Assembly (NCBI RefSeq): GCF_011045215.1 | Contig: NZ_CP049201.1 | Reading direction: 5' to 3' (one strand) | DNA length: 64,000 nt | From: Escherichia coli | Lineage (GTDB): Bacteria > Pseudomonadota > Gammaproteobacteria > Enterobacterales > Enterobacteriaceae | The notes under the pieces: model-generated | The model's input: the letters and a program-made list of their open reading frames with translations, nothing else | Databases searched by the model: none | What the model was told of the DNA's origin: nothing | Part shown: positions 1-27,167 of the stretch, one piece after another | How the letters are laid out: each line of letters opens with the position of its first letter | Numbering within the stretch: position 1 is the first letter of the stretch | Translations under genes and position numbers: made by a program

Positions 1-254
1 CAACCGAAATTACCATCAGACCCACTGCATCTGCAAACTGAAGAATAACTTTTACATTCACGTTTTATTAAATAGGTCAGAAGGAAGATTTATATATCCC
101 TGTGTTTTTCATAGCAAGATGCATTATGTATTGCTCACCCCGAAGGAGATGAAGGTTTAATTACAGAAAGATTATTTTCACAGGAAGTAAACATGACTCA
201 TGTTTAATGCCTTTATATATAAAACTCATCCTCTCAATTGTCAGGAGAATTAGC

Positions 255-485
255 ATGAATACTATCTGTTCTTTAATTGTTGTGGTTACACTGTCTTTAT
301 TATCATTCAGTAGCGTCGCCAAAACGATTACTGCCGTCGGTTCAACCATTGACAGCACTGAAAAAGAAATTTCTTTACAGGCAGAAAAACAAGGGAAATC
401 ATATAAAATTCTGGGCGCGTTTTTTAAGAACAGAGTTTATATGATAGCAAAGTTAACACCAGTCAGTAAAAATGATGCTTCATAA
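255..485 (+). CDS. small secreted protein, candidate DUF1471 (YdgH/BhsA/McbA-like) family
   Basis: ORF with AGGAGA 8 nt upstream of the ATG at 255; N-terminal signal-peptide-like segment MNTICSLIVVVTLSLLSFSSVA followed by ITAVGSTIDS...EKQGKSYKIL, resembling YahO/RclB-type small periplasmic proteins. The ORF-track start at 207 looks too early. Confidence 0.4.
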   Translation: MNTICSLIVVVTLSLLSFSSVAKTITAVGSTIDSTEKEISLQAEKQGKSYKILGAFFKNRVYMIAKLTPVSKNDAS

Positions 486-789
486 GGCTCATGGTATAAT
501 TTTAAGACATGATCAAGAAGCACGTCTATTGATTCAAAATTATCATTATGATGGAAATGGAATGCCCGACAAATGACGCTACACCCACCTTCTGTACCAG
601 TCGTTCTGCTAATTCTACCGATGCTTCGGTCTGGAGTAGTAAAGTAATATTGGACACAGTTTTATTTTCTCTCTTTTTCGAGGGCTGTATATCAACAGGA
701 AGAATACATCCCTAAGCGGTTAATGCTGGCGTAATCAATAGACCAGCATTAATCACAGATGATTACCAATCAGACAGAAATGGTTAAAT

Positions 790-956
790 CGTCGAATTCA
801 TATTTAATACGTTTTCTTACGCCGCTGAACAGCTTGAAAAGGATGCATATTTTAAATATCAGTGAAATGAACAGTTTATTGCCGTTATTAATAGAAATGG
901 AGGGATAAATACGCGTATTCTACTGTTGCAACAAAAACAACGATATTGATCGGTTT
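790..956 (-). pseudogene. decayed relic: ykgO-like 3' end (790-840) fused to ykgR-like 3' fragment (840-956)
   Basis: 790-840 aligns with 19425-19477 (3' end of ykgO) at roughly 75-80% identity. 840-955 aligns with 20157-20272 at roughly 90%. Minus-strand codons 888-956 translate to KPINIVVFVATVEYAYLSLHFY*, matching the YkgR C-terminus, with no in-frame start (TGA at 957-959). Confidence 0.55.
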
Positions 957-1185
957 TCATAATGAAGTAACCTGACAGATATAAAAATGTTGATTGAGGC
1001 TAAATTCCCGGATGAAGGTTGTTGAGGGAGCCAGGTAGTTTTTTCTTTTGGGTGATCTCCATTGCTGGATAGTCCCCTTGTACAGATAAGTCCGCTCTTT
1101 CTCGCTCAAAGCGGCCCCTGGAATTGAACGCAGAGTGACTACCTGACACAATATTGCACAGTGAAGAGTCGGTCGTTGTTAACGT

Positions 1186-2070
1186 TCAGATTTTCAATGT
1201 ATCAATGACCATCCGCAGAGCGGGGGAGACGTTGCGATGAGGGTAATAGAGAAACAATCCCTCCAATCGCAGGCTGTAACGCTGCAACACTCTGATAAGC
1301 TTACCGTGTTCTAAATCATCCGCGACCAGTTCAACAGGAACATAGGCCAACCCGAGGCCCAGCCGGGCTGCTTCTGCTTCCATATAGCTGTCGGATAGGG
1401 CCCATTGCCCTTCAGGGCGATGAGTGATTTTTTTATCATCCTGATTGAGTTCCCACTGGTATACGCTGCCGTCGGCAAACTGATAGGCGATACAGGGATG
1501 CGCCTTTAAATCCGCCGGAGTTTGCGGAAAACCATAGCGACGAAAATGTTCCGGAGTCCCCACAATTGCCATCTCCATATCGGGCGTGATGCGTACCGCG
1601 ACCATACCCTGGCCGACTTCAGGCCCCAGGCGGACACCTGCATCGAATCTTTCCTCGATGATATCGACGAACCGGCTCTCATTTATCAGTTCAAGCCGGA
1701 TATCAGGATATCGCTGTTTAAATACCGCCAGCTTTGGCAGCAGGCATTTATCAATCGCATGCTGGCTGGCATTGATGCGCACCGTGCCGGAGGGCGTCTC
1801 TCGATAGTGCGCCAGCGTGGCAAGCCCAAGATCTAACATTTCAAATCCAGATGCCGTCTTCTGGTAGAGCTGCTCGCCTGCTTGCGTCAGAGACAGTTTA
1901 CGCGTGGTGCGCACCAGCAGCTGGACGCCCAGCCTTTCTTCAAGCTCGCGAACAGAACGGCTGACTCCTGACTGCGCAAGACCCAGCCGTTTAGCCGCTG
2001 CGGTAAAACTGCCTTCTTGCACCACCTGCATAAACAGGTACAGCTCGTTGTAGTTCTCCCTTTTCGCCAT
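1186..2070 (-). CDS. LysR-family transcriptional regulator
   Basis: 294 aa; N-terminal HTH (EGSFTAAAKRLGLAQSGVSRSVRELEERLGVQLLVRTTR) and LysR substrate-binding domain. Divergent from the hydrolase at 2236. Sits where K-12 has the yagP pseudogene (from memory). Confidence 0.85.
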   Translation of the reverse strand: MAKRENYNELYLFMQVVQEGSFTAAAKRLGLAQSGVSRSVRELEERLGVQLLVRTTRKLSLTQAGEQLYQKTASGFEMLDLGLATLAHYRETPSGTVRINASQHAIDKCLLPKLAVFKQRYPDIRLELINESRFVDIIEERFDAGVRLGPEVGQGMVAVRITPDMEMAIVGTPEHFRRYGFPQTPADLKAHPCIAYQFADGSVYQWELNQDDKKITHRPEGQWALSDSYMEAEAARLGLGLAYVPVELVADDLEHGKLIRVLQRYSLRLEGLFLYYPHRNVSPALRMVIDTLKI

Positions 2071-2235
2071 TGAAACATCCCCCCTTCATGCCGGCAATCT
2101 TCGCATTAATTTATAACAATATGGTATTAATCTTAGCATTAATCGCCCCCTAATCAGCACTAATTCTGCTCACTATAATGACCCCATCAAAGTAAAGCAC
2201 CGCAGCGTTGTCCGTCGGAAACCTGTATCTCTCTG

Positions 2236-3393
2236 TTGTTTTTTATGGGGATTTTTATGAAAGCCTTCACCCGAACGCTAAAAACCGCGATGCCGGCCAT
2301 GCTGCTTTTCGCATCATTAAGTGGAGTCACGACAATGAGTTATGCTGATTCAACCAATCCTAATGCCCCTGTGTCCATGACAGATAAATGGGATAAAACG
2401 TTCGCCGAGAGCCAGAAAGTCGATCATCGTAAAGTATCGTTCCCGAACCGATATGGCATCACCTTAGTGGGCGATCTTTACCTGCCTAAAGACCGTGGCG
2501 ATCGCAAGCTGGCGGCGATTGCGGTCAGTGGGCCATTTGGCGCGGTGAAAGAGCAATCCAGCGGCTTGTATGCGCAGACGCTGGCGGAACGAGGGTTTGT
2601 TACCCTGGCGTTCGATCCTTCTTACACCGGGGAAAGCGGCGGCTATCCGCGAAACGTCGCCTCACCGGATATCAACACTGAAGATTTCAGCGCGGCGGTG
2701 GATTTCTTAGGGCTGCAAAAAGAGGTAGATCGCAACCGTATCGGGCTGCTCGGTATTTGTGGCTGGGGTGGCATGGCGCTGAACGACGCGGCGATGGATA
2801 CCCGCGTTAAAGCGGTTGCTACCAGCGTGATGTATGACATGAGCCGGGCGATGGGCCATGGTGTGGGGGATGGCGAAGACCGTTATTCTACCGCCGACCG
2901 TCGTGCTGTTCTGCAATATCTGAATGAACAGCGCTGGAAGGATGCGCAGAGCGGAACGTTCGCTCACGGTGGTCATGATATTAATGTCGATAGCAACGGC
3001 AAGGTCAGTGCGGGCGAGCGCATTCTGCCAGAAACGCTGCCGGCAAATCCTCATCCGGTACTGAAAGAGTTCTTTGACTACTATCGCATGCCGCGCGGCT
3101 TCCACGAACGTTCCGTTAACTCTACCGGGGCGTGGACGGCAACGATGCCGCTGTCATTTATGAATATGCCGCTGTTGAGCTACGCCAGTGAAATAACCAT
3201 TCCGACGCTGATTGTGACCGGTGAGAAAGCACATTCACGCTATTTTGCTGAAGATGCTTACAAGGCGGTTGGCAGTAAAGACAAAGAGTTGGTGGTGGTA
3301 CCAGGAGCAAATCACGTGGACCTGTACGATAACGTGGCCGGAAAAATACCTTTCGCGAAGTTCGAACAATTTTTCCAGACCAAACTGAAATAA
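2236..3393 (+). CDS. secreted alpha/beta hydrolase, dienelactone-hydrolase-like with Cys at the nucleophile elbow
   Basis: 385 aa; signal-peptide-like N-terminus (…AMPAMLLFASLSGVTTMSYA|DS); motif LGICGWGG; paralogous to the 22157-23077 product. The true start may be the internal ATG at 2257. Confidence 0.75.
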   Translation: MFFMGIFMKAFTRTLKTAMPAMLLFASLSGVTTMSYADSTNPNAPVSMTDKWDKTFAESQKVDHRKVSFPNRYGITLVGDLYLPKDRGDRKLAAIAVSGPFGAVKEQSSGLYAQTLAERGFVTLAFDPSYTGESGGYPRNVASPDINTEDFSAAVDFLGLQKEVDRNRIGLLGICGWGGMALNDAAMDTRVKAVATSVMYDMSRAMGHGVGDGEDRYSTADRRAVLQYLNEQRWKDAQSGTFAHGGHDINVDSNGKVSAGERILPETLPANPHPVLKEFFDYYRMPRGFHERSVNSTGAWTATMPLSFMNMPLLSYASEITIPTLIVTGEKAHSRYFAEDAYKAVGSKDKELVVVPGANHVDLYDNVAGKIPFAKFEQFFQTKLK

Positions 3394-3468
3394 AACCTCT
3401 CCTGAATTGATGCAAAGCCACCGGTCTATGGCCGGTGGCTTTTATCCTGATCTTTGTGAAATTTCACT

Positions 3469-4662
3469 ATGTCGACACTAAGCCAAACACCATCACCTCA
3501 TCATCAGCACGCATACTGGGGCGGTATTTTTGCCATGACCCTGTGCGTGTTTGTGCTGATTGCTTCTGAATTTATGCCCGTCAGCCTGCTCACGCCGATT
3601 GCCCGTGACCTGGGCGTGACGGAGGGGCTGGCAGGGCGGGGGATTGCTATCTCCGGTGCGCTGGCGGTTCTGACCAGCCTGACGCTTTCAACGCTAGCTG
3701 GAAAGATGAATCGTAAGTTCCTGCTGCTGGGGATGACGGTTCTGATGGCCGTATCGGGGCTTATTATTGCGCTGGCTACCAGTTATCTGATGTATATGGT
3801 CGGTCGTGCGATGATTGGTGTGGCCATTGGCGGATTCTGGTCGATGTCAGCGGCAACGGCGATTCGTCTGGTGCCGCAGCATCAGGTCACGCGTGCGCTG
3901 GCGATTTTCAACGCCGGTAATGCGCTGGCGACGGTCGTGGCCGCGCCGCTGGGAAGCTATCTGGGGGCTACGGTCGGATGGCGAGGCGCTTTCTTGTGCC
4001 TTGTGCCCATGGCGGTTGTCGCCTTTATCTGGCAGTGCATTAGTCTGCCCAGCATGGATGCGAATAAAAGCCACACGTCATGTGGCGCGGTATTCCGCTT
4101 ATTTAGCCGCCGCATGGTTGTGCTCGGCATGATAGCTTGTGGCCTGTTTTTCATGGGGCAGTTTGCGCTATTCACCTATGTGCGCCCGTTTCTGGAGTCG
4201 GTGACACGGGTTAATTCCTTAGGCTTGTCGTTGATTTTGCTGATTATCGGCGTGGCCGGTTTTATTGGCACGCTGGTTGTTTCGACATTTCTCAACAGAA
4301 AATTCTACCCCACGCTGATGGCCATACCCGGACTGATGGCCGTCATTGCCATCGGTCTGATGCTTACCGGGCATCACGTCTGGACGGTCTCGCTGCTGTT
4401 AGGACTCTGGGGCATGCTGGCCACCGCCGCGCCAACCGGATGGTGGACATGGATTGCGCGTACGTTGCCTGACAACGCCGAAGCCGGAGGCGGGCTCATG
4501 GTCGCGGTGATTCAGCTCGCCATCGCCCTTGGATCAACGGCAGGAGGCATCGTGTTTGACCGCCTTGGCTGGCAGAGTACGTTTGCCATGAGTAGTGTGC
4601 TGCTCCTTTGCGCGGGCGTACTGACCTTTGTTACCGCACGCCAGAAGGCCGGTGCGCTTTAG
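3469..4662 (+). CDS. MFS-family transporter
   Basis: 397 aa, about 12 predicted hydrophobic spans, typical MFS length and glycine-rich helices. Confidence 0.8.
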   Translation: MSTLSQTPSPHHQHAYWGGIFAMTLCVFVLIASEFMPVSLLTPIARDLGVTEGLAGRGIAISGALAVLTSLTLSTLAGKMNRKFLLLGMTVLMAVSGLIIALATSYLMYMVGRAMIGVAIGGFWSMSAATAIRLVPQHQVTRALAIFNAGNALATVVAAPLGSYLGATVGWRGAFLCLVPMAVVAFIWQCISLPSMDANKSHTSCGAVFRLFSRRMVVLGMIACGLFFMGQFALFTYVRPFLESVTRVNSLGLSLILLIIGVAGFIGTLVVSTFLNRKFYPTLMAIPGLMAVIAIGLMLTGHHVWTVSLLLGLWGMLATAAPTGWWTWIARTLPDNAEAGGGLMVAVIQLAIALGSTAGGIVFDRLGWQSTFAMSSVLLLCAGVLTFVTARQKAGAL

Positions 4663-4840
4663 TCCGGCGAGGGCGCGCGTTGCTGAATAAGTTACACAAG
4701 GCGATGAGCACCCACTATGGGTAGGGCGCTCTTTTAAACGATTTAGGTGATTTTCTAAAACGGCTACTGCAGATTTTTCTCTTAATTTATGATATTTCCC
4801 CCGGAGGTGAGAAAGCGCTTCCCACGCCCGGCCGCAAGGA

Positions 4841-5797
4841 TCAGGACGACGGGGGCAGGTATGAATCCTCCTCCTGATGGAGACGTACAGAGGCGACTTC
4901 TGCCAGCACGGAGAGGGCCAGTGTATGCGCATCCCGGGCTTTGGGAAATATCCCGACGGGTGCCCGGATTTGCGCTGTCTCCTCCCTGGACCATCCCAGC
5001 TCGTGGAGCTTTTGCAGACGTAAAGTGTGGGTTCGATAGCTGCCCAATGCGCCGAGATAAAAGGGTTTTGCTTCTCGCGCGGCCTGCAACACTGGCAGCT
5101 CCCGGTTGAGATCATGGCACAGCAAAATGACCGCCGTATCGGTATCGATCTGAGCGCTGGCTGAGGCCGGAAAAAGATCGAAGATATGGCTGTCATAGCC
5201 TGTGGCTGCTGCAAGACTCGCGGCTGCCTGCGCCTCAAGAGAACGTCCGTAAATCATCAGCCTGACGCATGGCCTGAACCCCACCTCAAAGCCATTGAGA
5301 TTCCAGCCCGTTCGGGTTTGCGTGGGCAGGCACACCAACGATTGTGCTTGCGGATCGTAGCGCAGCCCCGCCGGTTTTCTCTGTTCCAGGCGGTTCAGCA
5401 CGGCGAGCAGAGGCTGTGCCGAGCGTAGTTTATGGAGCGTCAGCGTGATCCCACCGCCGCAGGGCAGAACGATGTCAAACCACGGCGAACCTTCGCCATA
5501 GCGAATTTCGCGATCGCAGCCTGAGCCCATCATCTCCAGCGCTTCAAAAGCGGCAGCGGCCTCCACGCAGCCGCCAGAGACAAAACCGCAGTAACGACCA
5601 TCTTCGCGCACCACCATCTGCGCCCCGAGCGGGCGCGCCGCGCCGCCGCGTATCTCCACCAGCGTCACCAGCACCGCTCCTTTACCGGACATTAGCGCCT
5701 CTACGGCGAAGCGCAGAATGGTCCGGTGGTCATCGGTGAGAAACGCCTGCTCTGGCTTATGCCAGTGTTCGTCTTTATCAAAAAGCGGGTATGACAT
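4841..5797 (-). CDS. paoD: molybdenum cofactor insertion chaperone (XdhC-like) for PaoABC
   Basis: 318 aa, XdhC/CoxI-family features, immediately downstream of paoC in the same orientation. Confidence 0.85.
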   Translation of the reverse strand: MSYPLFDKDEHWHKPEQAFLTDDHRTILRFAVEALMSGKGAVLVTLVEIRGGAARPLGAQMVVREDGRYCGFVSGGCVEAAAAFEALEMMGSGCDREIRYGEGSPWFDIVLPCGGGITLTLHKLRSAQPLLAVLNRLEQRKPAGLRYDPQAQSLVCLPTQTRTGWNLNGFEVGFRPCVRLMIYGRSLEAQAAASLAAATGYDSHIFDLFPASASAQIDTDTAVILLCHDLNRELPVLQAAREAKPFYLGALGSYRTHTLRLQKLHELGWSREETAQIRAPVGIFPKARDAHTLALSVLAEVASVRLHQEEDSYLPPSS

Positions 5798-5806
5798 TGT
5801 TCCTCC

Positions 5807-8005
5807 TTAAACCACATCCGGCAGCTTATCGAGCAGCTTATCCAGAGTGATGGGATAATCGCGTACCCGAATACCGGTGGCGTTATACACCGCGTTGGCG
5901 ATAGCCGCGCTCACGCCGCACAGGCCCAGCTCACCGACACCTTTGGCCTTCATCGGGGAGGATATGGGGTCGGTATCATCCAGGAAAATCACTTCCTGTT
6001 TTGGGATATCCGCATGGACCGGCACCTCATACCCCGCCATATCGTGATTAACGAAGTAACCCAAACGGTCATCCACCGCCAGCTCCTCCATCAGTGCCGC
6101 GCCCATGCCCATAGTCATTGCGCCAATGACCTGGCTGCGTGCAGTTTTCGGATTCAGGATGCGTCCTGCAGCACACACAGCGAGCATACGCCGGACCCGA
6201 ACTTCTCCCGTCGCTCTATGCACGCCGACCTCCACAAAATGCCCGGCAAAGGTCGACTGCTGGTACTCCTTGCTCAGTGTTCCGAATTCAATGCTCTCTT
6301 CCGCTGTCAGTCTGCCGCCTGCGGTGGCCTCATGTAGCATGGCGCTTCGGGTACCGTTGGTAATCTTGCCGTCGGCAAACTGCGACTGCTCAGGATCAAA
6401 CCCGACTGCCGAGGCAATCATTTCGCGAAGCTTCACACAGGCGGCGTAAACGCCGGAGGTGGAGGTATTCGCGCCCCATTGTCCACCAGAACCCGCAGAA
6501 ACCGGGAAACTGGAATCGCCGAGGTGAACCGCAACCTGCTCCAGCGGTACGCCAAGCATTTCCGCTGCCGTCTGGGCCAGAATGGTGTAGCTGCCGGTGC
6601 CAATGTCGGTCATGTCCGTTTCCACGGTAACGGTGCCGTTTGGTTCGAGGTGAACCCGAGCCCCCGATTTTTCCAGCAGATTATTGCGAAAGCCCGCCGC
6701 GACGCCGTGGCCGACTAGCCACTCTCCGTCGCGTACCTGTCCGGGTGTGGCGTTGCGCTGCTTCCAGCCAAATTTATCCGCTCCGGTGCGCAAGCACTCG
6801 ATAAGCTGACGGCGAGAGAAGCGGCGCGTCGGGTCGGCGGGGTCAACCTGAGTGTCATTCAGGATGCGAAACTCGACGGGATCGATGCCCGCTTTTTCCG
6901 CCAGTTCGTCGATCGCGATTTCGAGCGCCATCAGACCGGGGGCTTCGCCGGGCGCACGCATGGCGTTCCCTTCTGGCAAATCAAGCGTGGCGAGCCGCAG
7001 GCCGGTATGACGGTTTGCCCCGGCGTAGAGTAATTCGCTTTGCTGTACCGCCGTTTCCGGCGTGCCGCCGGGCAGGTTTCCGGACCAGCTTTCATGTGAG
7101 ATAGCGGTGATTTTCCCGCTCTGGTCGGCACCGATACGCAAGTGCTGAAGGGTGGCGGGGCGGTGCGTGGTGTTATTGGGAATAGAGGGGCGGGGGAGCA
7201 TCACTTTAACCGGACGTTTCACCGCTCGGGCGGCGAGGGCCGCCAGCAGCGCATCGCTTCTCAGGAACAGCTTGCCGCCAAACCCTCCGCCGATATACGG
7301 GGAGATAATACGCACATTCTCCACGGGCACTTTTAGCGTTTTTGCCAGATCGGTGCGGCACCAGTCAATCATCTGATTTGAGGTCCAGAGAGTAAGCTTA
7401 TTTCCATCCCAGACGGCCATCGAGGCATGCGGCTCCATCGCCATATGGCTCTGGTCCGGGGTCGTGTAGGTAGCATCAATCTTCACCGCAGCGGAGGTGA
7501 AAGCCCCGTCAAAGTCACCGACGTTTTTGTCGGGCGTGTCTTCCGGCGGCTGACTGACGGCCTGTTTTTCGTCCGCCAGGGAGTAAGCTCCTTTATTACG
7601 GCGATAGTGCGCCTGCACCAGCGAGGCCGCCGCTCGCGCCTGTTCGAAGGTCTCGGCCACTACCAGCGCAATGGCCTGATGATAGTGCTCAATAGTGGGA
7701 CCGCCTAACAGCCTGGCGGTGTTTTTGTCGCCTTTGCCGAGTGCCCCGGCGTTACTGGCGGTAATGACAGCCAGTACGCCCGGCGCTTTTTGCGCGGCGT
7801 CCGTATCAAGGGCGGTGAGGCGTCCTTTGGCAATGGCGGAACCGACGATATAGCCATAGGCGGCGTTGGGGGATTCTTCATGCCATTCGTAGGCGTAGCG
7901 TGCCGTGCCGGTAGTTTTCAGCGGTCCGTCGATGCGGTCATAGGGACGACCGACAACCTTCAGCTGATCGATCGGGTTTTCCCCTGCGGGTTTATCAAAT
8001 TTCAT
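5807..8005 (-). CDS. paoC: periplasmic aldehyde oxidoreductase, molybdopterin-binding large subunit
   Basis: 732 aa xanthine-dehydrogenase-family molybdopterin subunit; 4-nt overlap with paoB. Confidence 0.9.
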
Positions 8006-8958
8006 GCTTGTGCCCTCGCTTCAGCCAGTACGGAGGCAAGCGTTCGCTTCGCCAACAGGAGTTTAAAGGTGTTTTCAGCGGTGGGATGGGCGCTGGCGAA
8101 CAGCGCGTCATATACGGCCTGCGCCCCCTGGGATAGCTGAGCATCCGCAGCCTCAATGCGCCAGGGCTTATGTGCTACTCCGCCCAGCGCGACGCGCCCG
8201 CTGCCGTCAGGCTGAATAATCGCCGCGACCGATACCAGGGCAAAGGCGTAGGAGGCGCGATCGCGCACCTTACGGTAGATATGTTTTCCGCCGAGCGGCG
8301 GAGGTAACGTCACCGCAATGATAAGCTCACCGGGAAGCAGGGCGGTTTCAATGTGCGGCGTTTTCCCCGGTGGGTGATAAAAATCAGCCAGTGTGATACT
8401 GCGAGTCTTTCCCTCCGGCGTGATGGTTTCCACCACCGCATCCAGCAACCGCATTGCGACCGCCATATCGCTCGGATGGGTGGCAATGCAGGCTTCGCTT
8501 ACGCCTACCACCGCGTGCTGACGGCTAAAGCCTTCAAGCGCCGCGCAGCCGCTCCCGGGCAGGCGCTTATTGCAGGGCTGATTGGTGTCGTAAAAATAGG
8601 GGCAGCGCGTGCGCTGGAGCAGATTACCTGCGGTGGTTGCCTGATTGCGTAACTGACCAGACGCGCCAGCGAGCAGGGCGCGGGAGAGTACCGCGTAATC
8701 ACGACGCACGCGCTCGTGAGCCGCCAGGTCGGTGTTCCGTACCAGTGCGCCGATGCGCAGCCCACCCGCGTCGGTCACTTCGATCTTATCGAGCCCGAGG
8801 CCGTTCACATCGATAAGGTGGGTGGGCGTTTCAATTTCCAGCTTCATCAGGTCCAGCAGATTGGTCCCGCCCGCGATAAATTTTGCGCCGGGTACGCGCT
8901 GAGCGCTAAGTGCCGCCTCGGCTGGGGTGTTCACTCGTTCATAGGTAAACGCCTTCAT
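8002..8958 (-). CDS. paoB: periplasmic aldehyde oxidoreductase, FAD-binding subunit
   Basis: 318 aa CO-dehydrogenase flavoprotein-like; overlaps paoA stop and paoC start by 4 nt, suggesting translational coupling. Confidence 0.9.
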
Positions 8959-9644
8959 GATTTTATCTCCCCCGCAGCGTCTTCAATGGCGGCAAGGATG
9001 TTAGCGTATGCACCACAGCGACAGATGTTGCCGCTCATACGTTCACGGATCTCATCGGCAGTTGTTTCTGGAGGGGAAACCAAATCGACCGTGACGTGAC
9101 TGGGAATGCCGTCCTGAATCTCTTTTAGCACCGCTACTGATGAGCAAATTTGCCCGGAAGTGCAGTAGCCGCACTGGAAGCCATCATGCTTGATAAAGGC
9201 CGCCTGCATGGGGTGAAGATTATCTGGTGAACCCAGGCCTTCAATGGTGGTGATCTCGGCCCCCTGATGCATGACTGCCAGCGTCAGGCAGGCATTAAGC
9301 CTGCGACCATTGACCAGCACGGTACAGGCTCCGCACTGTCCGTGATCGCAACCTTTCTTGGTACCGATCAGATGCAGATTTTCACGCAAAGCGTCCAGTA
9401 GCGTGGTTCGGGTATCCACCTCAAGCTGCTCGGTTTTGCCGTTCACCTTAAGTGTCAGGGGCATTATCTCTGGCGCGGGTGTAGCTGCCGGAACGCTTGC
9501 CGCAAGCGTAGAATGAGGATAAACCACGGCGGTCGCCGCCGTTGCGGCGCTCACTTTAATCAGATCGCGACGGGTCAAACTAAAATCGTGCGGCTCGTGC
9601 TTCCCAACCCGATTATCTTCGGGGTATTCGCCTTGGTTGCTCAT
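8955..9644 (-). CDS. paoA: periplasmic aldehyde oxidoreductase, 2Fe-2S subunit with Tat signal
   Basis: 229 aa; twin-arginine motif [19 protein letters not shown]; two 2Fe-2S cysteine clusters (CDHGQCGAC and CGYCTSGQ...CRCG). Confidence 0.9.
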
Positions 9645-10060
9645 ACCAGGCCTCCGGTATTCTAAAGGGGAAAATAAGAGTGCGTTGTGAGAGTGCTGAT
9701 GCTTTTTTAAACGTTAAGCATAGTCGGCGACAGCAGGAGGATTATTCTTAAAACGCGAATGCAGCTATGAGCCCGGCTAATAAATTCATGTTCGCCGGGA
9801 TGTTGATGAGGATGGGAGCTGGTTTATTGCTTTAGTTGTACGATGCAAAACCGATAAGGAAACCTGTGATTGTCAGCTCTGCATCACCCTGCAAATCTTT
9901 GTCACTTCTAATATAAAAATATGGAGAAATGATGGTGCTTATATTCATTGGCGATTAGGCAACCATCATTTTATACAAAACAATACAGTTCTTTACATTT
10001 GCCTTGTTTTATGAATACTCCTAAAGAGGTGTATAACATAATGGTACAAGCAGGGTAGAT

Positions 10061-10675
10061 ATGAATATATTTGAACAAACTCCTCCGAACCGCAGACGTT
10101 ATGGTCTTGCTGCATTCATTGGGCTGATTGCTGGCGTTGTTTCCGCATTTGTGAAGTGGGGGGCTGAAGTTCCATTGCCGCCACGTAGCCCGGTGGATAT
10201 GTTTAATGCAGCGTGTGGCCCGGAATCATTAATCAGGGCTGCTGGGCAAATTGATTGCTCGCGTAATTTTCTCAATCCTCCGTATATTTTTCTTCGAGAC
10301 TGGCTGGGGCTGACAGATCCCAATGCGGCTGTTTATACCTTTGCCGGGCATGTCTTTAACTGGGTTGGTGTTACGCACATTATCTTTTCGATAGTGTTTG
10401 CTGTCGGTTATTGTGTGGTCGCTGAAGTATTTCCAAAAATTAAACTCTGGCAGGGCTTACTGGCAGGTGCTTTAGCCCAACTTTTTGTTCATATGATTTC
10501 ATTCCCTCTCATGGGACTGACACCACCTCTGTTTGATCTCCCGTGGTATGAGAATGTTTCTGAAATTTTTGGACATTTAGTCTGGTTCTGGTCCATTGAA
10601 ATTATTCGCAGAGATTTACGAAACAGAATTACTCATGAGCCAGACCCTGAGATCCCTTTAGGCTCAAACAGATAA
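10061..10675 (+). CDS. yagU: inner membrane protein YagU (DUF1440)
   Basis: 204 aa multi-pass membrane protein, matches YagU by position and sequence. Confidence 0.85.
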
Positions 10676-10689
10676 TGCATTGAATGATA

Positions 10690-10718
10690 AAAATGGCGCA
10701 AATACAGCGCCATTTTTA
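10690..10718 (+). terminator. intrinsic terminator after yagU
   Basis: Stem AAAATGGCGC / GCGCCATTTT with loop AAATACA, followed by a T-run, 15 nt after the yagU stop. Confidence 0.55.
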
Positions 10719-10865
10719 TAGGTTAAAAACATTGCTTTTTATATTCTGATGCAGATAGCCAGTGAGTATATCGTGCCACTTCAGGATGATGTAGATCCGA
10801 AGAACGCTACAGAAGAGAGGCATTGTTGCTGGCAAATACAAGAAGTATCGGGTTTTGTTGCCCCT

Positions 10866-10899
10866 AAAAACGAAGCCCCGCTATTACAGTAGGCGGGGC
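10866..10899 (-). terminator. intrinsic terminator after ykgJ
   Basis: Hairpin GCCCCGC(11-nt loop)GCGGGGC at 10875-10899, followed on the minus strand by UUCGUUUUU; about 19 nt downstream of the ykgJ stop. Confidence 0.5.
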
Positions 10900-10917
10900 A
10901 GTGCAATTAATTTATGT

Positions 10918-11247
10918 TTATAACGGTGTCAGCCCGTATTTAGCCCTTGCACGATTGCAAGCCTCATTGACGACTCCGTTCTCACCAGACATGGCGAATT
11001 CTCTGCATGTGGACGATCGATTTTTATATATCGTGCAGCAGGCATTTTTGCCCGGGGTTCCTGCAAGGGCAATACATCGGGGGTTTTTCTGATTGGTACC
11101 GCTCATGCATCGGTGAAAAGGGGATATTTGTTCAGTGAGCCTGGCGGGAATAGTGCCGCCAGCATCGTCGGCTTCGGCCCAGTAGAAAGAGACGCGGAAA
11201 AATGCACAACAGGCACCACACGTCATGCATGGATTCAGATTGCTCAT
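10918..11247 (-). CDS. ykgJ: cysteine-rich YkgJ-family (UPF0153) putative Fe-S/zinc protein
   Basis: 109 aa with CMTCGACC...C motifs. Confidence 0.8.
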
Positions 11248-11559
11248 AATTCACCAGTACAGCTATAAATCGTAAAGAGAACAGCGGTACATCGTATGTA
11301 AGAACGTACCGCGGTTGGCTGGTGTACTTTCGATAGTGTGAGTATTGAATGATTTCCAGCCGTTACCGATTTTACGTACTAATTCGTGAATAAACCACTC
11401 GTTAGCAGGCAGCCTGATACCTTTCCGTGTCTCCTGAACACTATGGTGTGCATATGGGAAAGCCCATCGTTACAGGTGATATTGACGATCGCTTCCACAT
11501 CATTTAAACGATTTTTGAGTCTCTGAGGTGGAATTCTTCCCTCGACCGATGGATAAGTA

Positions 11560-12270
11560 TCAGTCCGCCGAAGGGGGCTTAGCCGGACAGGAATCGCTAA
11601 TCTTAATGAATTTGTCGTTATAGACCAAATAATGATTCCCCGGCTGACGTAACTCAGGCTGATGAACCACGTCTCCCGGACGTAGATACCAGGCATCGCC
11701 TTCCTCTTCGGTCGAATCACATCCTGGTTTAATCAATAGCTTAAACCACGTGTTGCCGATGTTACTTACCGTTCCTGTCACCTGGTCGAAGGACCATTTA
11801 AACTGGACCTGACGTGGTCGTACTACCAGAATGGTATCCATCACCACCACCGGCTCCGTGCTGACCTCGCCGCCGGTTGGGCTGCGTCTTGTCTGGTTAC
11901 GAGTGGGGACCTCGCGAAATGAGACCCGGTAGTAGCGCTCGCGGTTATCCTGTGGACCATGATAGTAAAATTTAAAATACTCGCTCTCACCAGCCTGCAA
12001 CGCCAGCTGGCGGGGGGCGAAAAGCAGTTCACCATCCACCGGTCGGGTGCGCAATTCACTGCTGCCCGGGCTATCAATAGCACTGATGGCAATACGGTAT
12101 ATCCGTGCGCTTTTGTTGTTATTCACTACACGTTTGCTGACAAAGTCAGTCTCGGACGGCAGTGAAAAAGTCAGATTGCCGACCGAAATCGCCTGTGTCA
12201 AAGGTGCCGCCAGCATACAGACCGCTGTCAGCAGGGCCTTAGTTAATGTTACGCCACGTCGCCTGAACAT
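11560..12270 (-). CDS. ecpE: E. coli common pilus periplasmic chaperone EcpE
   Basis: Signal peptide plus chaperone-like body; start set at MFRRRGVTL (236 aa) rather than the longer ORF-track start; overlaps the ecpD 3' end. Confidence 0.8.
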
Positions 12271-13882
12271 GAATTTCTCCTGAAGCGCTGACTTCGCCAA
12301 ACCAGCCGTTATCATCTACCGTACGCAGCGAAATGGCGTTATCCATTGGAATCGAAAATTTGACTGTGGTCTTATCCATCTGCCCCACTTCGCCAGAGAT
12401 ATCAGTCCACGGTGTGGTCAGCCACAGCGCATCGGTCATATCCCGCCAGCTATCATCGCACCCGGCATCGTAGGTTTTTGTAGCTCCGTTGCGAGTAATA
12501 AAGGAAAGCGTCGCCGGGAACGGTACTTTCGCCTTACCGTCATCGGAGCTGAAGACACAATAGGAGCGCCCGCCAATCACCTGCGCGGGTCCGGTCACCT
12601 TGATCAGCACTTCGTCGGCAGCTGTTTTACCGCTGGTGGTTACGATATAGCCGAAATCGAGTGCCGACTCGCCGCTGCCGACATATCCCTCCCGCGACGG
12701 TGTCTGAGTATATTCATCGGAGATAATACTGATGCTGAAATCACGGGGTTTGATAAGCAGCGTGTTGGAGGTAGAAAATTCATACCAGCCAGACTCCGGT
12801 GATGTGGTGTTCTGAAAGCGAAAGTTGAATAGATCTTTGGTGTTGATATCGCTGATCCCGAGGTTCACCATCTGCTTAAAGAAGTTGCTCGAGAAGAAAA
12901 CATAGATCGAGTCTGCGCTCTTCATCTCGTTGAAGGTGTAGTAATAGGCAGTATTGCTCACCGGTTTCCATGAACTGCCATTCAGACTGAACTGCATATC
13001 GTACGCCCCGACGGCCGAGGCTAATGATGAGTTGGCGATCGCCGGGAATATATGGATTGAGATGTTGCTGAGTCCGTTTGTTTGCAGGGTGTAGTTGACC
13101 ATCTTACAACTTAATCCTGAAAGGCTGCCGATGGTTTGCGTCCGGCAGTCGGCGTTCCCTTCGCCCAGAGTCGGTACTCCGTCGCTGTTGATAAATACCT
13201 CCGCCAGCGAGTGGGTATTTATTAACCGCAGATTTGCTGCTTTCGTATGGGTGACATTGCGAACATACCAGTTTCCGGAGGCCTGATCCTTACAACGCGC
13301 GCCGCTGCTGGCGTCATAGTTCACAGAGGTCTGACAGGTATTGATGGTCATTGTAAAGCTGCTGCCGACGGGCATTTGTTGCATATACTGGTAAAACGCG
13401 TCTGACAACATGCCGTGCATCCATTTCGCGCCGCCGCTGGTCACCGTCGCGCCATAAAATCCACTGGCGTCGGTGGTTTGCGGCAGGATAAGACTGGTGG
13501 TCATATTACACCCTGCGTACCAGTTGATGCAGCGTAAGCCAGTTAAAGGAGATGAAACCGGCGAATTTTCCAGCCACATATCAAACTTCCAGTTGGTATA
13601 GAGGCCGGTGTTGTAACCGTTATCAATGTAGCCGAGGCTTTGTTGATAAATGGTTCCTGAGCCAGTGTATTTTAAACCGGTCCAGCGGTTGGCACCGGTC
13701 AGGCGCGGATCCAGCGCCCCGCCAGGCGTGACGAAAAAGTTGTCGTCTGAGTTGTTTTCGACAAACACAAACTCGCTTGCCGGTGCATCCGCCCAGGTTG
13801 TTTTGCTCACTGCCGCTCTGAGCGCAGTTACTGGCCAGATTAGCGCGAAAATTATCATCGTTATTAGTAGGTTAACTCTCAT
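12239..13882 (-). CDS. ecpD: E. coli common pilus tip adhesin / polymerised minor subunit EcpD
   Basis: 547 aa with signal peptide; position within the ecp operon. Confidence 0.85.
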
Positions 13883-16397
13883 TCTCTTCTCCTGTCTGCG
13901 TCACCGCCGCCCACGATGAGAGGCCGCTGCAGACCACATCACCGACCCAGACGGCACCGCGCGCCTGGTTGAGTTCCAGAGCCACTTCGCAGGTTTTATT
14001 GCCACTGTAGCGAAAATCGATAGTGGGGTATTTCTTATCCACGTCCATGACAAACTCGCCGTTTTCATCGGTTCGGGTTCGGCCGATATGGTTGTTAATC
14101 CGTGCGTTAGCCAGCAGTGTGCCGTCTTCCGCACGGATACGACCGGAGACGGTAACCATCTGCTTCACCTCTGGCTCAATGACAGCGACATTGCCTGGAT
14201 AGAGAGTCAGATGACTTTTGCGGCCGCTGACGATATCGTAACTGTCGAGTGAGTTTTTGCTGTTCTGTAACTCCACCTCATATCTTCCATAGGGAGAGAG
14301 CGGGAGATAGTTACGCTTGCCGTGAAGCGGGAAAATCCGCCCGTTGATTTTGGCGCTGATCTGACCGTCGTCCTCCAGCCCGGTGTTGAATATCACCCCA
14401 GCGTTGCCATCAGTCCGCCCGCTGGCAGCAATGTTTTTACCCTGCCAGCCGACGCTGCCATTGGCGGTTAAATTGGTATTGACGTAGCCGTCCGCCGCGC
14501 TATTGACGTTCAGCGTTCCGCTGGCGTAGCGAGCGTCGAACTGTGCATACGCCCCACCACTGAGAGTTTTGTCATCACCTGTATCGCCGGAGATGGCTCG
14601 TGACAGATTGGCACCAACAGTGCGAATGGTCCCTTCATCAAACTGCTTGCATGCTGACAGGTTTGCCATGGTGTAGCCGTTTTGATGAGTCATCCCTGCG
14701 CTAAACCAGTTGCCCAGTGGTAGCGAGAGATCGAGAGCGATATATTTCCCTGTATTGGCGTTGCTGTCGCCGTTGTTATAGCGCTGAATACCGGCCCGCA
14801 GGCCAAGCGAACCAAAGGGACCGCTGTAGACATTTTGATAGTAATCTGCCGTGTAATAATGGCTGTTGTAACGGCGGTCATCATTGTAGCTGATGCTGAA
14901 TGTGCCCAGCTTCGACCACAGTGAGTTCAGGTTGAGTGTGCCGCCGATTGCACGGTTGTCGGCATCGCTACGTCGCAATTGATTGCCAATGCGGGTTTTT
15001 TCCTGGTTAACCCACAGCGAACTAAAGCCTCCCGGTAGAGTGGCGCTGATGCTGGCGATGTTGCTCCATGAGCTGTCACTGGCCAGCATATTTTGCAGGT
15101 TAACGTTGATCGCTCCCCCAAGCGGCAGCGTCAGACGGGTTTCACCCACCGCCTGATTATCGTATCCATATCCCGTTGCCGCCCAGCTAAGCGTACTCAG
15201 TGAGCCGGAGGTCGAGGCACCTGCCAGCCAACTCTCTTTAGCTGGTCGCGTCTTTTTCCCGTTTTCCGACCAGCGATCCATATGAAAGCTACCGCCCCAT
15301 ATCTGCCACGCCAGTGGTGCACCGACGCCGCGCCCCCGGCTAAACAGCTTATTGACCCGCTGGGTGCGTTTGCTGATCACGCGACCGTTAACGATCACCT
15401 CAACTTCCACATCGTAAATACCGTACGGTAGACCCCGGGTATCCACTTCATGATTGCCCATAGTGAAGTTCTGAACGCTTAGTAGCCGCCCATCACGGGT
15501 GAGATGTACTTCACCCGCCGCCGGTAAAAAGGCGATCACTGGCGTGGCTGACTGGCTGCTGTCGAAGATGGTGGAGCTGGCCTGGTTTCCCCAGGAAAGG
15601 CCGTAAATCTTCCCTGCTGAAATGGCGGTCATCGGCCCTAAGGACTGCAAGTTCCAGGTGTCGAGCATTCCACCGGCAAATCGGTGACCGGCAAAATCGC
15701 GTTCATACATCGCTTTATATAATTCACTGTCCTGTTGACCGCTACCGATCCCGTACAGCGAGCCGTCGAGCACCACATGATGTTCGCGCAGTGCAGTAAC
15801 GTTATTCAGCGACAGATAGCTGGATGTGTTGCTCCCGCCGTTACGCAACTGGTTGTTATAGATGCCGAAGTTATAGCTCAGATTACTGCTGAGGGTGTTA
15901 ACACTGGACTGCCCGATGTCTTCGCTACGTGAGCGTAGTACAGTGCCCAGCGCTTCGCGCTTGACCACCAGCTGCAGCAGCAGTTGGCGCAAGCTGAGAT
16001 CCAGCTGCGCGTTGTCAGTCAGGGGGATGGTAAGGGCCTCATTGAACGGGGCGTTCGCCAGAGCCATCAGCTGCTGTCGAGTTTGTTCGCTGACACTGGC
16101 GTTATCTTCACTCTCTTCCAGCTGTATTTTCCGGATGCGTAGCTGTCCATCATCCAGCCAGATAAAAGCGCTGCCGATTCGCTGATCGTCCTGGCGACCC
16201 TGGCTACCGGCGAGATGAATATAAAGCGGGACGCTCATGCCGTCCTGGAGCGCCTGACTGAAGGCCTGCGGAATAATCACCCCACCTATTTGCTGCGCAC
16301 TTATGTCAGCAGCGCTGGCATCGGGCTGAACGAACAAAAAGACCATGCCGAAGGCAAACTGGGCTTTCAGTCCTGGGGAGAACAGTCGTAAAGGCAT
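13872..16397 (-). CDS. ecpC: E. coli common pilus outer membrane usher EcpC
   Basis: 841 aa, signal peptide, usher-sized beta-rich protein between ecpB and ecpD. Confidence 0.9.
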
Positions 16398-16422
16398 TGT
16401 CGTTATCCATCTGCACAGCTAT

Positions 16423-17091
16423 CTATTTCACGGGAATGAACTTATCACCCTGCCAAAGTGCAACCCGTCCTTTGTTATCCGCAGTGTCCACGCGGGTAAA
16501 ACGACGCGACTTGCCCGGCATCAGGTAGTAATTCTCTTTACACTCCTTACCGTTGGCGGCTTTCAGGCAAGGGCCGTAGGCGAGGATCCGCAGCGTCGCA
16601 TTTCCTGTATTTGTCAGGGAGCCGTTGGCGTACTGAAAGTGGTAGTTCGCCTGGCGAGGGGCGACGACCAGAATGGTGCCGATGCGGGCGGAAGCAGTGG
16701 CCACAGCGCTGCGGTTGGCATTATCGCGCTGCGCATCACTGAGGGCCTGATCAAACCAGACAATGCGGTAGTAGCGCTCTTTTTCATCTGCGGGTCCCTT
16801 ATAGAAGAAGCGGATCACTTCGCTGGCTTGGGCGGGTAGCAGCAAGCTGGCGGGAGTGAGTAGCAACTCATCCGGCTTGTCCATTGAGATAACCTGCCCG
16901 TCGTCAAGCGGTGAAGAGAGCCGTTCGAGACGGATATTGATAAGGCGACCACTGTCGGTACTGTTTTTGATCGTTTTGCTCAGCGTGCTGCTGTCACTGT
17001 TCATAAACGATGATATATCGCCGACATCCAGCGCCTGGGCCGGAGATATTCCGGAAAACAGCAGAGCGAGAGGCAGAAGGTGCTTTTTCAT
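16423..17091 (-). CDS. ecpB: E. coli common pilus periplasmic chaperone EcpB
   Basis: 222 aa with signal peptide ([20 protein letters not shown]); paralog of EcpE. Confidence 0.85.
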
Positions 17092-17112
17092 AACAATTCC
17101 GTCCAGGAATAA

Positions 17113-17133
17113 AGCAGGGGGGCTACCCCTGCT
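17113..17133 (-). terminator. stem-loop between ecpA and ecpB (possible partial terminator / attenuator)
   Basis: Inverted repeat AGCAGGGG / CCCCTGCT with loop GGCTA; on the minus strand it is followed by UUAUUCC. Lies in the 57-nt ecpA-ecpB gap. Confidence 0.4.
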
Positions 17134-17148
17134 GGTACATCAGAGAGA

Positions 17149-17736
17149 TTAACTGGTCCAGGTCGCGTCGAACTGTACGCTAACGTCGCCGCTCCAGATG
17201 CCTTCCGGTAGAGTGCTGTAGTCGGTTACTGCGGTGGTACCATTGGTGGTGCCGCTGATGATGGTGAAGGTGAAACCATCCTGTGCAGTGGTACGATTGC
17301 TGGCATTGTAACCGTTAGCCAGCGGGCTAAGGTTGCCGCCCAGTACGCCGTTGGCGGTATCGATCATCACGGTATCGCCAGTTTTTTCGACTGCCGCGCC
17401 GTTATAATCCACGCCCACATTCAGTGTGGAACCTGAGGTATCCAACTGGGTTAATGTGTTGGTGATAAGACGTGAGGTCAGTTTAAAGGCGGTAGCCGTT
17501 GAGTCACCTTCGATAGCCACGTCAAATAGACCTTTCTGTGAGTTAAAACCTTTAATGCCTTCGGCATACTGGAACGCCAGGCTACCGAGTGGCGTCACAA
17601 CCAGCTTACTGGTGGTGTCTTTTTTGGCTGTTGCCGACCAGGTCGCTACAGCCTGAGCTGTTACGTCAGCAGCCTGCGCCACACCCATGCCGGTAAACAC
17701 CGTTACCAGAGCTATTGCCAGAACCTTTTTTTTCAT
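17149..17736 (-). CDS. ecpA: E. coli common pilus major subunit EcpA
   Basis: 195 aa, signal peptide [22 protein letters not shown], Thr/Ser-rich pilin-like sequence. Confidence 0.9.
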
Positions 17737-17810
17737 TGCATTTCTTCCCGAGTTGAATTGAGGACGTGATGTCCCAGTGAGTCATTTTTTAAAACTAACT
17801 TGCCTGGAGT

Positions 17811-19170
<1,360 letters not shown>

Positions 19171-19404
19171 GTGAAAATGCAGGCTGCGCCGCAAAGGGAG
19201 GAGACTGAGTGGCGTGTTCAGTCTAAAAGAGAGTTGATGCCAGCATACAGGGGCGAAGCTGGTCAACAAGTCAACATTAAGATAATGGAATATTCGGAGA
19301 GAAACGTCAGGCAGTTGGCCTCAAATGAACAGGAAGAATATATCCGCAGGAAAATTAATGTTGGTGTTATAAACACACCAACATTAAACCGATCTGATTA
19401 TTAA
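19171..19404 (+). CDS. ykgL: small uncharacterised protein YkgL
   Basis: 77-codon ORF (possibly starting at the second Met) in the position expected for ykgL; no recognisable domain. Confidence 0.4.
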   Translation: MKMQAAPQREETEWRVQSKRELMPAYRGEAGQQVNIKIMEYSERNVRQLASNEQEEYIRRKINVGVINTPTLNRSDY

Positions 19405-19438
19405 TCAGACAAATATCGTTAATTCGTCGAATTTTAAA

Positions 19439-19579
19439 TCAACGTTTTTTCTTACGACCCTGAACGGCCTTAAAACGTGGATTAGATTTACAAATCACAT
19501 ATAGCCGTCCTTTTCGCTTCACAATCTGACAGTCTGGATGGCGTTCTTTTGCGGTACGAAGAGAGTTAAGAACTTTCAT
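19439..19579 (-). CDS. ykgO: ribosomal protein L36 paralog (non-zinc-ribbon type)
   Basis: Minus-strand translation [46 protein letters not shown] (46 aa); the start ATG overlaps the ykgM stop in a TGATG arrangement. Confidence 0.85.
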
Positions 19580-19842
19580 CACGCCCCCTTTTTCGTGCTA
19601 ACAAAACGACCAAAACGTTGGGTGAATCGTGCAACATTTCCTTCTGATGCCACTGTTCTCAGCTTCCCTGTATAGAACGGGTGCGATTTAGAAGAGACAT
19701 CAATTGTCACGTATGGATACGTTACGCCATCCAGCTCAATCTCACGGTCTGTTTTGATAGTCGAGCCGATTTTAAAGTACTCATCAACACTGGTGTCGTG
19801 GAACACCACAGTACGATACTCAGGATGGATATTGGGTTTCAT
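19579..19842 (-). CDS. ykgM: ribosomal protein L31 paralog (type B, no zinc ribbon)
   Basis: 87 aa from [23 protein letters not shown]…; AGGTGA Shine-Dalgarno upstream; the ORF-track GTG start three codons earlier was rejected. Confidence 0.9.
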
Positions 19843-19853
19843 CATTTTCACCT

Positions 19854-19871
19854 GTTATGTTATAACATAAC
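19854..19871. promoter_or_regulatory. Zur-box-like perfect palindrome upstream of ykgM
   Basis: GTTATGTTATAACATAAC is an 18-bp perfect palindrome 12-29 nt upstream of the ykgM ATG; ykgM-ykgO is a known Zur-repressed operon. Confidence 0.6.
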
Positions 19872-20204
19872 CGTAAAGATACATGCTCATCCGGATCATT
19901 TCAACACCCAATCCCTGTGACCCTTTGTGGATGTGGAATTTCCGCAACGGGGAACTCTGGCATTGTTAGCAGCCGTTGGCGACGCTCCCATAAACGCCTG
20001 GATGAGTGATTGATGATGGTTTTGCTGAGAGTATGGATTTTTCGAGAATGGAGGTTATCTCCACTTTACTGGCCGATGATTTATCGCAGTATGATTGATT
20101 ACCTGACAGCGTGTATTCCTCTCCCACGGATATAATAATTACTTACAAAAAGGGAGAGGATGCATATTTTAAATATCACTGAAGTGAACAGTTTATTGCC
20201 GTTA

Positions 20205-20306
20205 TTAATAGAAATGGAGAAATAAATAGGCGTATTCTACAATTGCGACAAAAACAACGATATTAATCAGTTTATGACTGATTTGTTGTACTTTATTCTC
20301 TTTCAT
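20205..20306 (-). CDS. ykgR: small hydrophobic protein YkgR
   Basis: Minus-strand ORF translates exactly to MKENKVQQISHKLINIVVFVAIVEYAYLFLHFY (33 aa), which I recognise as YkgR. Confidence 0.7.
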   Translation of the reverse strand: MKENKVQQISHKLINIVVFVAIVEYAYLFLHFY

Positions 20307-20779
20307 TGGTACTTCCTCGCTTTAAAAAAGAGCGCACTTCGTAAGTGCCCTTATATAAATAACGAGTTTGGTCAACCAATTTTTTGACATGTATCACAAA
20401 TTTGAATAGATGTATTACATCGGCTATCTTTTATTGCACCAACGTCATTGATATATGTCGCCTGAAGTCAGTTCCGGGAATGAGTCTGATCTCAAGACTG
20501 GCCCAGTCCTGGCGTTGATTGGCGCTGAGGAGCATATCGCATCTCATTATAATGTCGTATCTCCTGGGGTGTTATACAAGATATCGTTGTTGGTAACCTG
20601 GGCGAGGAATTGAGCTCTATTAAACCGTCAACTATGCCGGATACATACTGGATTACACTGAAGGCACGCCTTATGAGAGAACGTGCCGCAGTGACGGGTT
20701 AATTATCTGAAAGAATTTGTGAGGCTGTATCGGTTACTCATTGATTTGATAGTTTTACTCTCGGGAGAGTAATAGATAT

Positions 20780-21922: not shown

Positions 21923-22156
21923 AACAATACCTCAAATGTTTATCTGATTTTGATGCGTATGTTTTAACTGGTTAGTTGTTGCCAGCTTTGGAACCAAGAG
22001 TTCTGGCTTTATTTATAATCCCTTTAAAGGGTTTCTAATAATTGAGTTGCTGCTTTTTTGTTTTTTAATGAAATTTCTTTTTGAGTAATTTTATTATTGT
22101 TGTGTAGTCAATAAAGGATAAATGTCAGGGAGATAAGGAATCTCCCTGTAAAATTA

Positions 22157-23077: not shown

Positions 23078-23233
23078 TTCAAGCTCCGGGGATTTGCCTA
23101 AACAGATTTAAATATCATTTCTATTATCCGCAACTGGCATTTGTGTTCATATCGAGAACGGCGTAATAGTATGACTTGTATTGGTTATCATCAATGGTCT
23201 AATATCTATCACAGTGTTAAGTTAAGGTTTACA

Positions 23234-24160: not shown

Positions 24161-24300
24161 TGATATGTGTCAGAATATCGGTAAGAAGAATGGCGCAATC
24201 GTGAGGATACGTTTATTCATAATAAATCTCCTGAAAGTTTAGAATTATTTTCGATACAGCCAGATTATCATTGTTACTAATAATGTGGCTAAAATAATAG

Positions 24301-27167
<2,867 letters not shown>

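Follow-up and report, generated by a model that had tools for sequence, protein, structure and literature searches.

A truncated remnant of the ykgL-ykgO-ykgM-ykgR locus near thrW in Escherichia coli and its probable history

The window analysed here, a stretch of 64,000 nt of E. coli DNA that is 99.1% identical over 22 kb to strain PapM-32-1, carries the ykgL-ykgO-ykgM-ykgR locus in two versions. One is intact. In E. coli K-12 its ykgM-ykgO operon is repressed by Zur and encodes zinc-independent paralogs of the ribosomal proteins L31 and L36. The other version, at positions 691-956, is by its sequence a dead, truncated leftover of the same locus. The parts of this relic and their intact counterparts are listed in Table 1.

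Table 1. Coordinates of the relic, its flank and the intact locus in the window
Feature	Position	Strand	Remarks
ykgL' (ykgL 3' remnant)	691-766	+	Homologous to 19325-19401; frame broken, stop codon altered; blastn
ykgO-ykgM terminator hairpin remnant	720-753	-	Inverted repeat; intact counterpart 19355-19387
ykgO' (last 11-12 codons and stop, L36 paralog)	804-839	-	Reads (P)FQAVQRRKKTY and stop; translation, tblastn 7/9
Deletion junction	839-840		681 bp equivalent to 19476-20156 gone; A-rich
ykgR 3' flank	840-887	-	Copy of 20157-20204; 46/48 identical between copies
ykgR' (stop and last 22 codons)	888-956	-	No start codon or promoter; in-frame TGA upstream
Spacer from truncation point to stop codon of LysR gene (1186-2070, minus)	957-1185		957 is the first block base absent in single-copy genomes
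Intact ykgL	19177-19404	+	
Left-arm counterpart, intact locus	19325-19475	+	ykgL 3' end, terminator hairpin, ykgO 3' end
Intact ykgO	19439-19579	-	
Segment exclusive to intact locus	19476-20156	-	Rest of ykgO, ykgM (19579-19842), Zur-box palindrome (19854-19871), spacer
Right-arm counterpart, intact locus	20157-20273	-	ykgR 3' flank and codons 12-33 of ykgR (20205-20306)

Window positions 600-1100 were compared by blastn with 19100-20500, and the intact locus also with the whole window. The relic resolved into two arms, co-linear with the intact locus and on the same strand. The right arm (840-956) matches 20157-20273 without a gap at 107 of 117 positions (91.5%), with an E-value of 3e-45 region against region and 4e-43 against the whole window. 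An earlier reading made from the sequence alone had put the match of 840-955 to 20157-20272 at about 90%, in good agreement. The left arm aligns 691-840 with 19325-19475 at 114/155 identities (74%) and nine gap columns (E-values 8e-21 and 1e-18, respectively). Here the sequence-only reading had correctly recognized a likeness to the 3' end of ykgO and its flank, but its left boundary at 790 must be moved to 691, where the alignment reaches a 3' fragment of ykgL. The arm thus runs from the ykgL 3' end across the ykgL-ykgO spacer and takes in the final 11-12 codons of ykgO. Searching the whole window with the intact locus returned no further matches beyond these two arms. Comparison with shuffled controls, which the same reading had proposed as a check on the identity, left no ambiguity: the local alignment scores of 300 dinucleotide-preserving shuffles averaged about 20 and peaked at 28-33, against 94 for the left arm (z = 32) and 184 for the right arm (z = 74).

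The gap between the arms corresponds exactly to 681 bp of the intact locus, close to the earlier estimate of roughly 680 bp for a piece with ykgM, the Zur box and the greater part of ykgO, and shows A-rich microhomology at the junction. What has been deleted at 839/840 comprises ykgO codons 1-35, ykgM, the Zur box and the ykgM-ykgR spacer; other strains retain 9-30 additional bases at this point. The relic contains no ykgM-homologous sequence, nothing from 19476-20156 matches elsewhere in the window, and a tblastn search of positions 1-1300 with YkgM gave chance-level results (E >= 0.18). A Zur box is equally absent from the relic, as the 18-nt palindrome occurs once in the window, inside the deleted segment.

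Within the left arm the ykgL remnant still produces a tblastn match (YkgL residues 62-77 against 719-766, 9/16 identities). The terminator hairpin is followed by a U-tract at the intact locus and lacks one in the relic, while the relic stem is preserved by paired changes (GCUGG/CCAGC versus GUUGG/CCAAC). The two copies fold with -19.2 and -21.6 kcal/mol, with z = -4.2 for both. At the intact locus the last 16 codons of the ykgL ORF overlap a hairpin and U-tract on the opposite strand that resemble a ykgO-ykgM terminator. This segment is 61-73% identical between Escherichia species, which raises doubt about the protein-coding status of the ykgL 3' part. The minus strand of 804-842 translates into PFQAVQRRKKTY followed by a stop, the C-terminus of YkgO (7/9 identities by tblastn). 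A complete 46-codon L36 ORF does not exist in the relic, the C-terminal FQAVQRRKKTY being all that is left.

The decay of ykgR' is as evident. On the minus strand 888-956 translates into KPINIVVFVATVEYAYLSLHFY and a stop codon, with an in-frame TGA before it. The predicted translation of a YkgR C-terminus without a start codon was therefore exact, except that it differs from YkgR residues 12-33 by three substitutions and not by four: 19 of 22 residues are identical (tblastn E 1e-10) and the replacements are L13P, I22T and F29S. The 22-aa fragment scores 44.6 bits against the NCBIfam model NF041474, 'small membrane protein YkgR' (cut-off 40), over profile positions 14-33 of 33, compared to 78.1 bits for intact YkgR. 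There is no complete 33-codon ykgR ORF in the relic, since the first 11 codons are gone and no ATG, GTG or TTG follows the in-frame TGA. In an alignment of relics from different strains each group carries its own replacements: L13P/I22T/F29S in the window, L13P in PapRG and PapM, N15I/F32L in JNE25 and N15I/V18F/F32L in 042, whereas full-length YkgR is WP_000662258.1 in every genome checked. The right arm of the relic is 92-97% identical among E. coli and the adjacent LysR and hydrolase genes 97.5-99%. Truncation combined with relaxed constraint relative to the functional copy makes the relic, at the sequence level, an unprocessed pseudogene or gene remnant. It would thus be a dead remnant of a familiar kind without apparent function rather than a new type of element. 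The ykgR 3' flank includes an AT palindrome, ATATTTTAAATAT, situated just 3' of ykgR (20165-20177 and 848-860), which is kept in both copies and has no more than one change in any of the Escherichia lineages examined.

We find it hardly credible that the fragment has nevertheless been retained for a function, whether to encode a small protein or a regulatory RNA or to supply the LysR gene (1186-2070) with a downstream terminator or binding site. One could invoke the 96% identity of the 48-nt ykgR 3' flank between the copies, the genus-wide presence of the AT palindrome, a 21-codon plus-strand ORF (MHILNI...) found in both copies, and the location of the relic downstream of the LysR gene on the same strand. 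However, the MHILNI... ORF has no ATG in JNE25, 042 and the sister clade and no stop codon in one further locus, and a 33-codon ATG ORF at 859-960 matches no family; both were dismissed as genes for want of conservation and of a family match. No promoter-like or terminator-like site was found within 691-956, the relic alleles acquire differing replacements and diverge faster than their neighbours, and 83% of complete E. coli genomes do without the relic altogether.

Part of this remnant is already known: PGAP/RefSeq flags ykgR' as a pseudogene ('small membrane protein YkgR; incomplete; missing N-terminus'), flanked by a small BhsA-like gene and by a LysR gene, at 2-3 kb from proA-thrW. The ykgL' and ykgO' pieces are unannotated in RefSeq, and literature searches found no description of the relic; these pieces and the exact deletion scar are new. 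A search of 5426 complete E. coli genomes with 930-1190 as query detected the 956/957 junction in 917. K-12 is without the relic: a 6.1-kb deletion took out both the relic and the LysR-hydrolase-MFS module, and joined the remaining 3' part of the thrW-proximal LysR gene, now the yagP pseudogene, to sequence immediately left of paoD. Leftward of the relic the strains differ, and in strain 042 an AbiE island cuts into ykgL'.

The modules on either side of the relic, LysR-SDR on the left and LysR-hydrolase-MFS on the right, are patchily distributed and sit in unrelated contexts in other genera, which suggests that the thrW-proximal zone accretes foreign DNA. Next to LysR-hydrolase-MFS orthologs in Klebsiella, Citrobacter and a metagenome contig we found no intact second copy of the locus, only unrelated contexts. 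Homology with the Klebsiella module begins only at 1195, and among the loci compared only those of relic-bearing E. coli contain a homolog of the spacer 957-1185. LysR and hydrolase genes lie to the right of both copies (1186-3393 and 22157-25254), and a larger duplication was considered. It was discarded: the LysR proteins share 41% and the hydrolases 32% amino acid identity, and the differing order and orientation of these genes speak for paralogy at the family level only. The LysR-SDR module has about 90% protein identity to genes in Pantoea, Enterobacter, Klebsiella and on plasmids. It includes the gene at 255-485 (plus strand) for a secreted-looking protein of 76 aa with a weak match to the BhsA/YdgH family (23 bits, below the cut-off). 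In E. coli FDAARGOS_1373 (704-8563) the LysR-hydrolase-MFS module adjoins a pair of genes for an ATP-dependent nuclease and a UvrD-helicase, which has the look of a defence system, with an Lrp/AsnC regulator opposite.

Scanning one genome per species with a degenerate DNA pattern for the YkgR C-terminus gave matches in E. albertii, in two divergent lineages labelled E. coli, in Escherichia sp. E1V33 and in two tiny contigs. The latter, assigned to Sulfoacidibacillus and Alkalicoccobacillus, share about 98% identity with the ykgR region of E. coli and probably represent assembly contamination. The E69 sister clade (three loci; proBA 93.5% identical to E. coli) was initially read as carrying the relic, and proved on fetching more DNA to possess a single-copy, full-length locus. 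Its gene order is proBA-thrW, LysR, SDR, small protein, ykgL'-ykgO' with the same 681-bp deletion, and then a ykgR of the full 33 codons, followed on the right by flavin oxidoreductase, hydrolase and two LysR genes. In other words, the homolog of 1-956 joins that of 20163-27256, and 957-20156 has no equivalent. A chimeric query mimicking this arrangement retrieved it in three of the 5426 complete E. coli genomes, 6EVA, wlxctx60 and GF4-3, which are 4-10% diverged from relic-bearing strains in the region; the proBA genes of 6EVA and GF4-3 are 97.3-97.7% identical to those of E. coli. In a third clade (proBA 94.6% identical) thrW is followed after about 400 bp by ecpEDCBAR and ykgL-O-M-R, with neither relic nor pao. 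In E. albertii (1-4900 of the locus retrieved) ykgR-ykgM-ykgO is surrounded by large ORFs that contain proline-rich repeats and have no similarity to the E. coli flanks. In Citrobacter (two loci, gene at 10001-10261 there) ykgM (type B L31) has a CSS-EAL (pdeB-like) gene on one side and ylaC on the other, in the neighbourhood of hha-tomB-acrAB, and the position of ykgMO beside ecp in Escherichia is thus lineage-specific and not syntenic.

The ykgO-ykgM segment (19476-20156) has no match in 336 of the 5426 complete E. coli genomes (~6%). These include the three single-copy strains as well as PO06101, where the deletion is IS1-associated. A query with the ykgM region hit 6050 places in 5096 records, 14 of them on plasmids, and additional matches to ykgM therefore exist. 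Some E. coli conjugative elements (three loci) carry a second type B L31 gene, YkgM-like, with a product of 92 aa that is 92% identical; it lies (10001-10279 there) between TraG_N and a LysE-family gene, near an integrase. A second ykgM as partner of the relic site was considered and rejected, as the sole divergent YkgM cluster that could be traced was this conjugative element and not the relic position.

Which copy derives from which can be addressed through the 117-nt repeat, whose alignment contains only three phylogenetically informative sites. T924 and G948 (relic numbering) are derived and common to the relic and the single-copy E. coli form; at the third, 903/20220, an A is common to the single-copy and intact forms and is also present in E. 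albertii. G862 and C912 are confined to the relic and G20247 to the intact copy. Since G948 lies 8 nt from the truncation point, the single-copy ykgR has relic-type bases to within 8 nt of the relic cut and then continues as a complete gene. A crossover between relic and intact copy predicts bases of the relic type in the left part and of the intact type in the right part; the opposite is seen, and a simple crossover does not fit. On the other hand, the relic, intact and single-copy forms of E. coli have in common a derived 15-nt stretch (GAACAGTTTATTGCC) absent from other clades, and the fusion model favoured below needs ordinary allelic recombination or gene conversion within E. coli. The different identities of the two arms, 74% and 91%, call for no special event, because the same contrast in rate is seen when orthologous intact loci are compared across Escherichia species (61-73% for the left arm, 83-88% for the right arm). 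Gene conversion between the copies, at first suggested by this difference and by an apparent clustering of the copies by genome, was abandoned as the main explanation for this reason and because E69 turned out to be a single-copy locus.

The sequence-only reading had rightly described two copies in direct orientation that bracket a block of LysR-hydrolase-MFS, pao, yagU, ykgJ, ecp and ykgL genes; both arms are indeed on the same strand. It had offered as explanations either an ancient duplication followed by deletion, or a scar left when the block was assembled beside a former L31/L36-paralog locus. The scar fits the data better. An ancient duplication is less supported in that the relic-type locus is the sole copy, with a full-length ykgR, in some genomes, and in that the relic has derived bases in common with this single-copy form almost up to the truncation point.

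The history that we favour, with moderate confidence, is that a resident degraded locus was cut within ykgR when a block containing an intact locus was joined to it. In the ancestor of E. coli and the sister Escherichia clade, the locus adjacent to proA-thrW would have lost ykgO and ykgM by the 681-bp deletion, and also the 5' part of ykgL with the upstream DNA, where the LysR-SDR-BhsA-like module is situated now, while retaining a working ykgR. This degraded single-copy haplotype would still persist today. In the ancestor of window-type E. coli it may then have been fused with another haplotype of this interval, comprising LysR-hydrolase-MFS, paoABCD, yagU, ykgJ, ecp and an intact ykgL-O-M-R. 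The join would have been illegitimate on one side (inside ykgR, at 956/957) and homologous on the other, to the right. The resident ykgR would have been cut in the process, leaving its 3' two-thirds behind as a relic subject to neutral decay. Truncation of a resident single-copy ykgR would accommodate the informative sites at the cost of one homoplasy. The presumed partner, a haplotype with the LysR-hydrolase-MFS-pao-ecp block beside thrW and no relic, was not found among the genomes examined.

The main competitor, which we regard as rather unlikely, is a duplication within the genome whereby the stretch from mid-ykgL to mid-ykgR was copied 19 kb upstream in an Escherichia ancestor and the copy subsequently lost 681 bp, the single-copy genomes being products of later recombination between the repeats that removed the block along with ykgO and ykgM. 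The single-copy structure is the very one expected after homologous recombination between the two repeats, a chromosome short of precisely one repeat and the block, so that the direction of change has to be read from a few characters and from parsimony over a handful of lineages. Direct repeats bracketing the block, site 903/20220, which groups the single-copy form with the intact copy, and the common derived stretch of the E. coli copies, expected if they diverged or were converted within E. coli, all agree with a duplication. Yet its ends would have to fall inside genes, and at least two independent deletions (in the sister clade and in E. coli) would be required. In addition, the single-copy form continues from relic-type bases at 924 and 948 into the 5' part of ykgR, which would confine the crossover to the last 8 nt of homology, and among the 5426 complete E. 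coli genomes there is no recent recombinant deletion of the block that would illustrate such an event. A Campbell-type insertion has the appeal of generating the observed structure in a single step: a circular 19.3-kb molecule with the block and a partial ykgR would integrate by one crossover in the 117-nt ykgR segment, and 956/957 would mark the point of circle closure. We consider it improbable, as it predicts that the left half of the relic and the right half of the intact copy match the resident form, the reverse of what the informative sites display, and as the window, block included, contains neither an integrase nor an att-like tRNA fragment. An integrase-mediated island with att repeats was rejected on similar grounds: no integrase is annotated in the block, no thrW-derived stretch of at least 12 nt, which would have pointed to such an island or to a transduction-type insertion, occurs near the repeats, and the repeats themselves consist of ykg-locus DNA.

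Fusion of two thrW-proximal haplotypes as the likely history of the region is a modest result in genome history and of small practical value. It does bear on how the pao, ecp and ykgMO genes came together in E. coli. Also new is that the relic-type locus is the sole, still functional ykgR locus in the sister clade and in three E. coli genomes. Natural E. coli without the zinc-independent L31/L36 paralogs have thereby been identified and could be used to study the role of these paralogs under zinc limitation. The 117-bp direct repeats might serve recombination as a substrate. A more far-reaching view, speculative and in our estimate quite unlikely to hold in full, is that the thrW-ykgR interval represents a long-lived structural polymorphism of Escherichia, with one haplotype devoid of YkgM and YkgO and another having them along with the ECP pilus, that a tandem fusion of both gave rise to most E. 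coli, and that the 117-bp repeats would allow loss of the 19.3-kb pao-ecp-ykgMO block, or its transfer between lineages, through homologous recombination and without an integrase.

Compared with known genes, the relic resembles ykgR (NF041474, Pfam PF28062, K-12 b4671) in that 888-956 corresponds to residues 12-33, with 19 of 22 identical, exceeds the cut-off of the family model and is followed by the same 3' flank. It differs by the missing start codon, first 11 codons and promoter, by the in-frame stop upstream and by strain-specific replacements. Of the ykgM-ykgO operon it preserves the terminator hairpin and the final 11-12 ykgO codons, arranged and oriented as in the intact locus, but ykgM, ykgO codons 1-35 and the Zur box are absent and nothing zinc-responsive is left. 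The thrW-proximal interval has a further scar in yagP, the K-12 pseudogene located at the right end of the CP4-6 prophage, although it is the product of the very 6.1-kb deletion that removed the relic. Partial duplications can arise through one-ended homologous and illegitimate recombination, or through the formation of merodiploids upon integration of a fragment with chromosomal flanks. The structure described here is similar to these in that a truncated resident gene stands beside joined DNA with its own complete copy, and in that the 956/957 boundary lies in a gene with no homology across it while the other side continues into homologous flank. It departs from them in that neither a donor haplotype nor a phage remnant nor an att fragment was found here.
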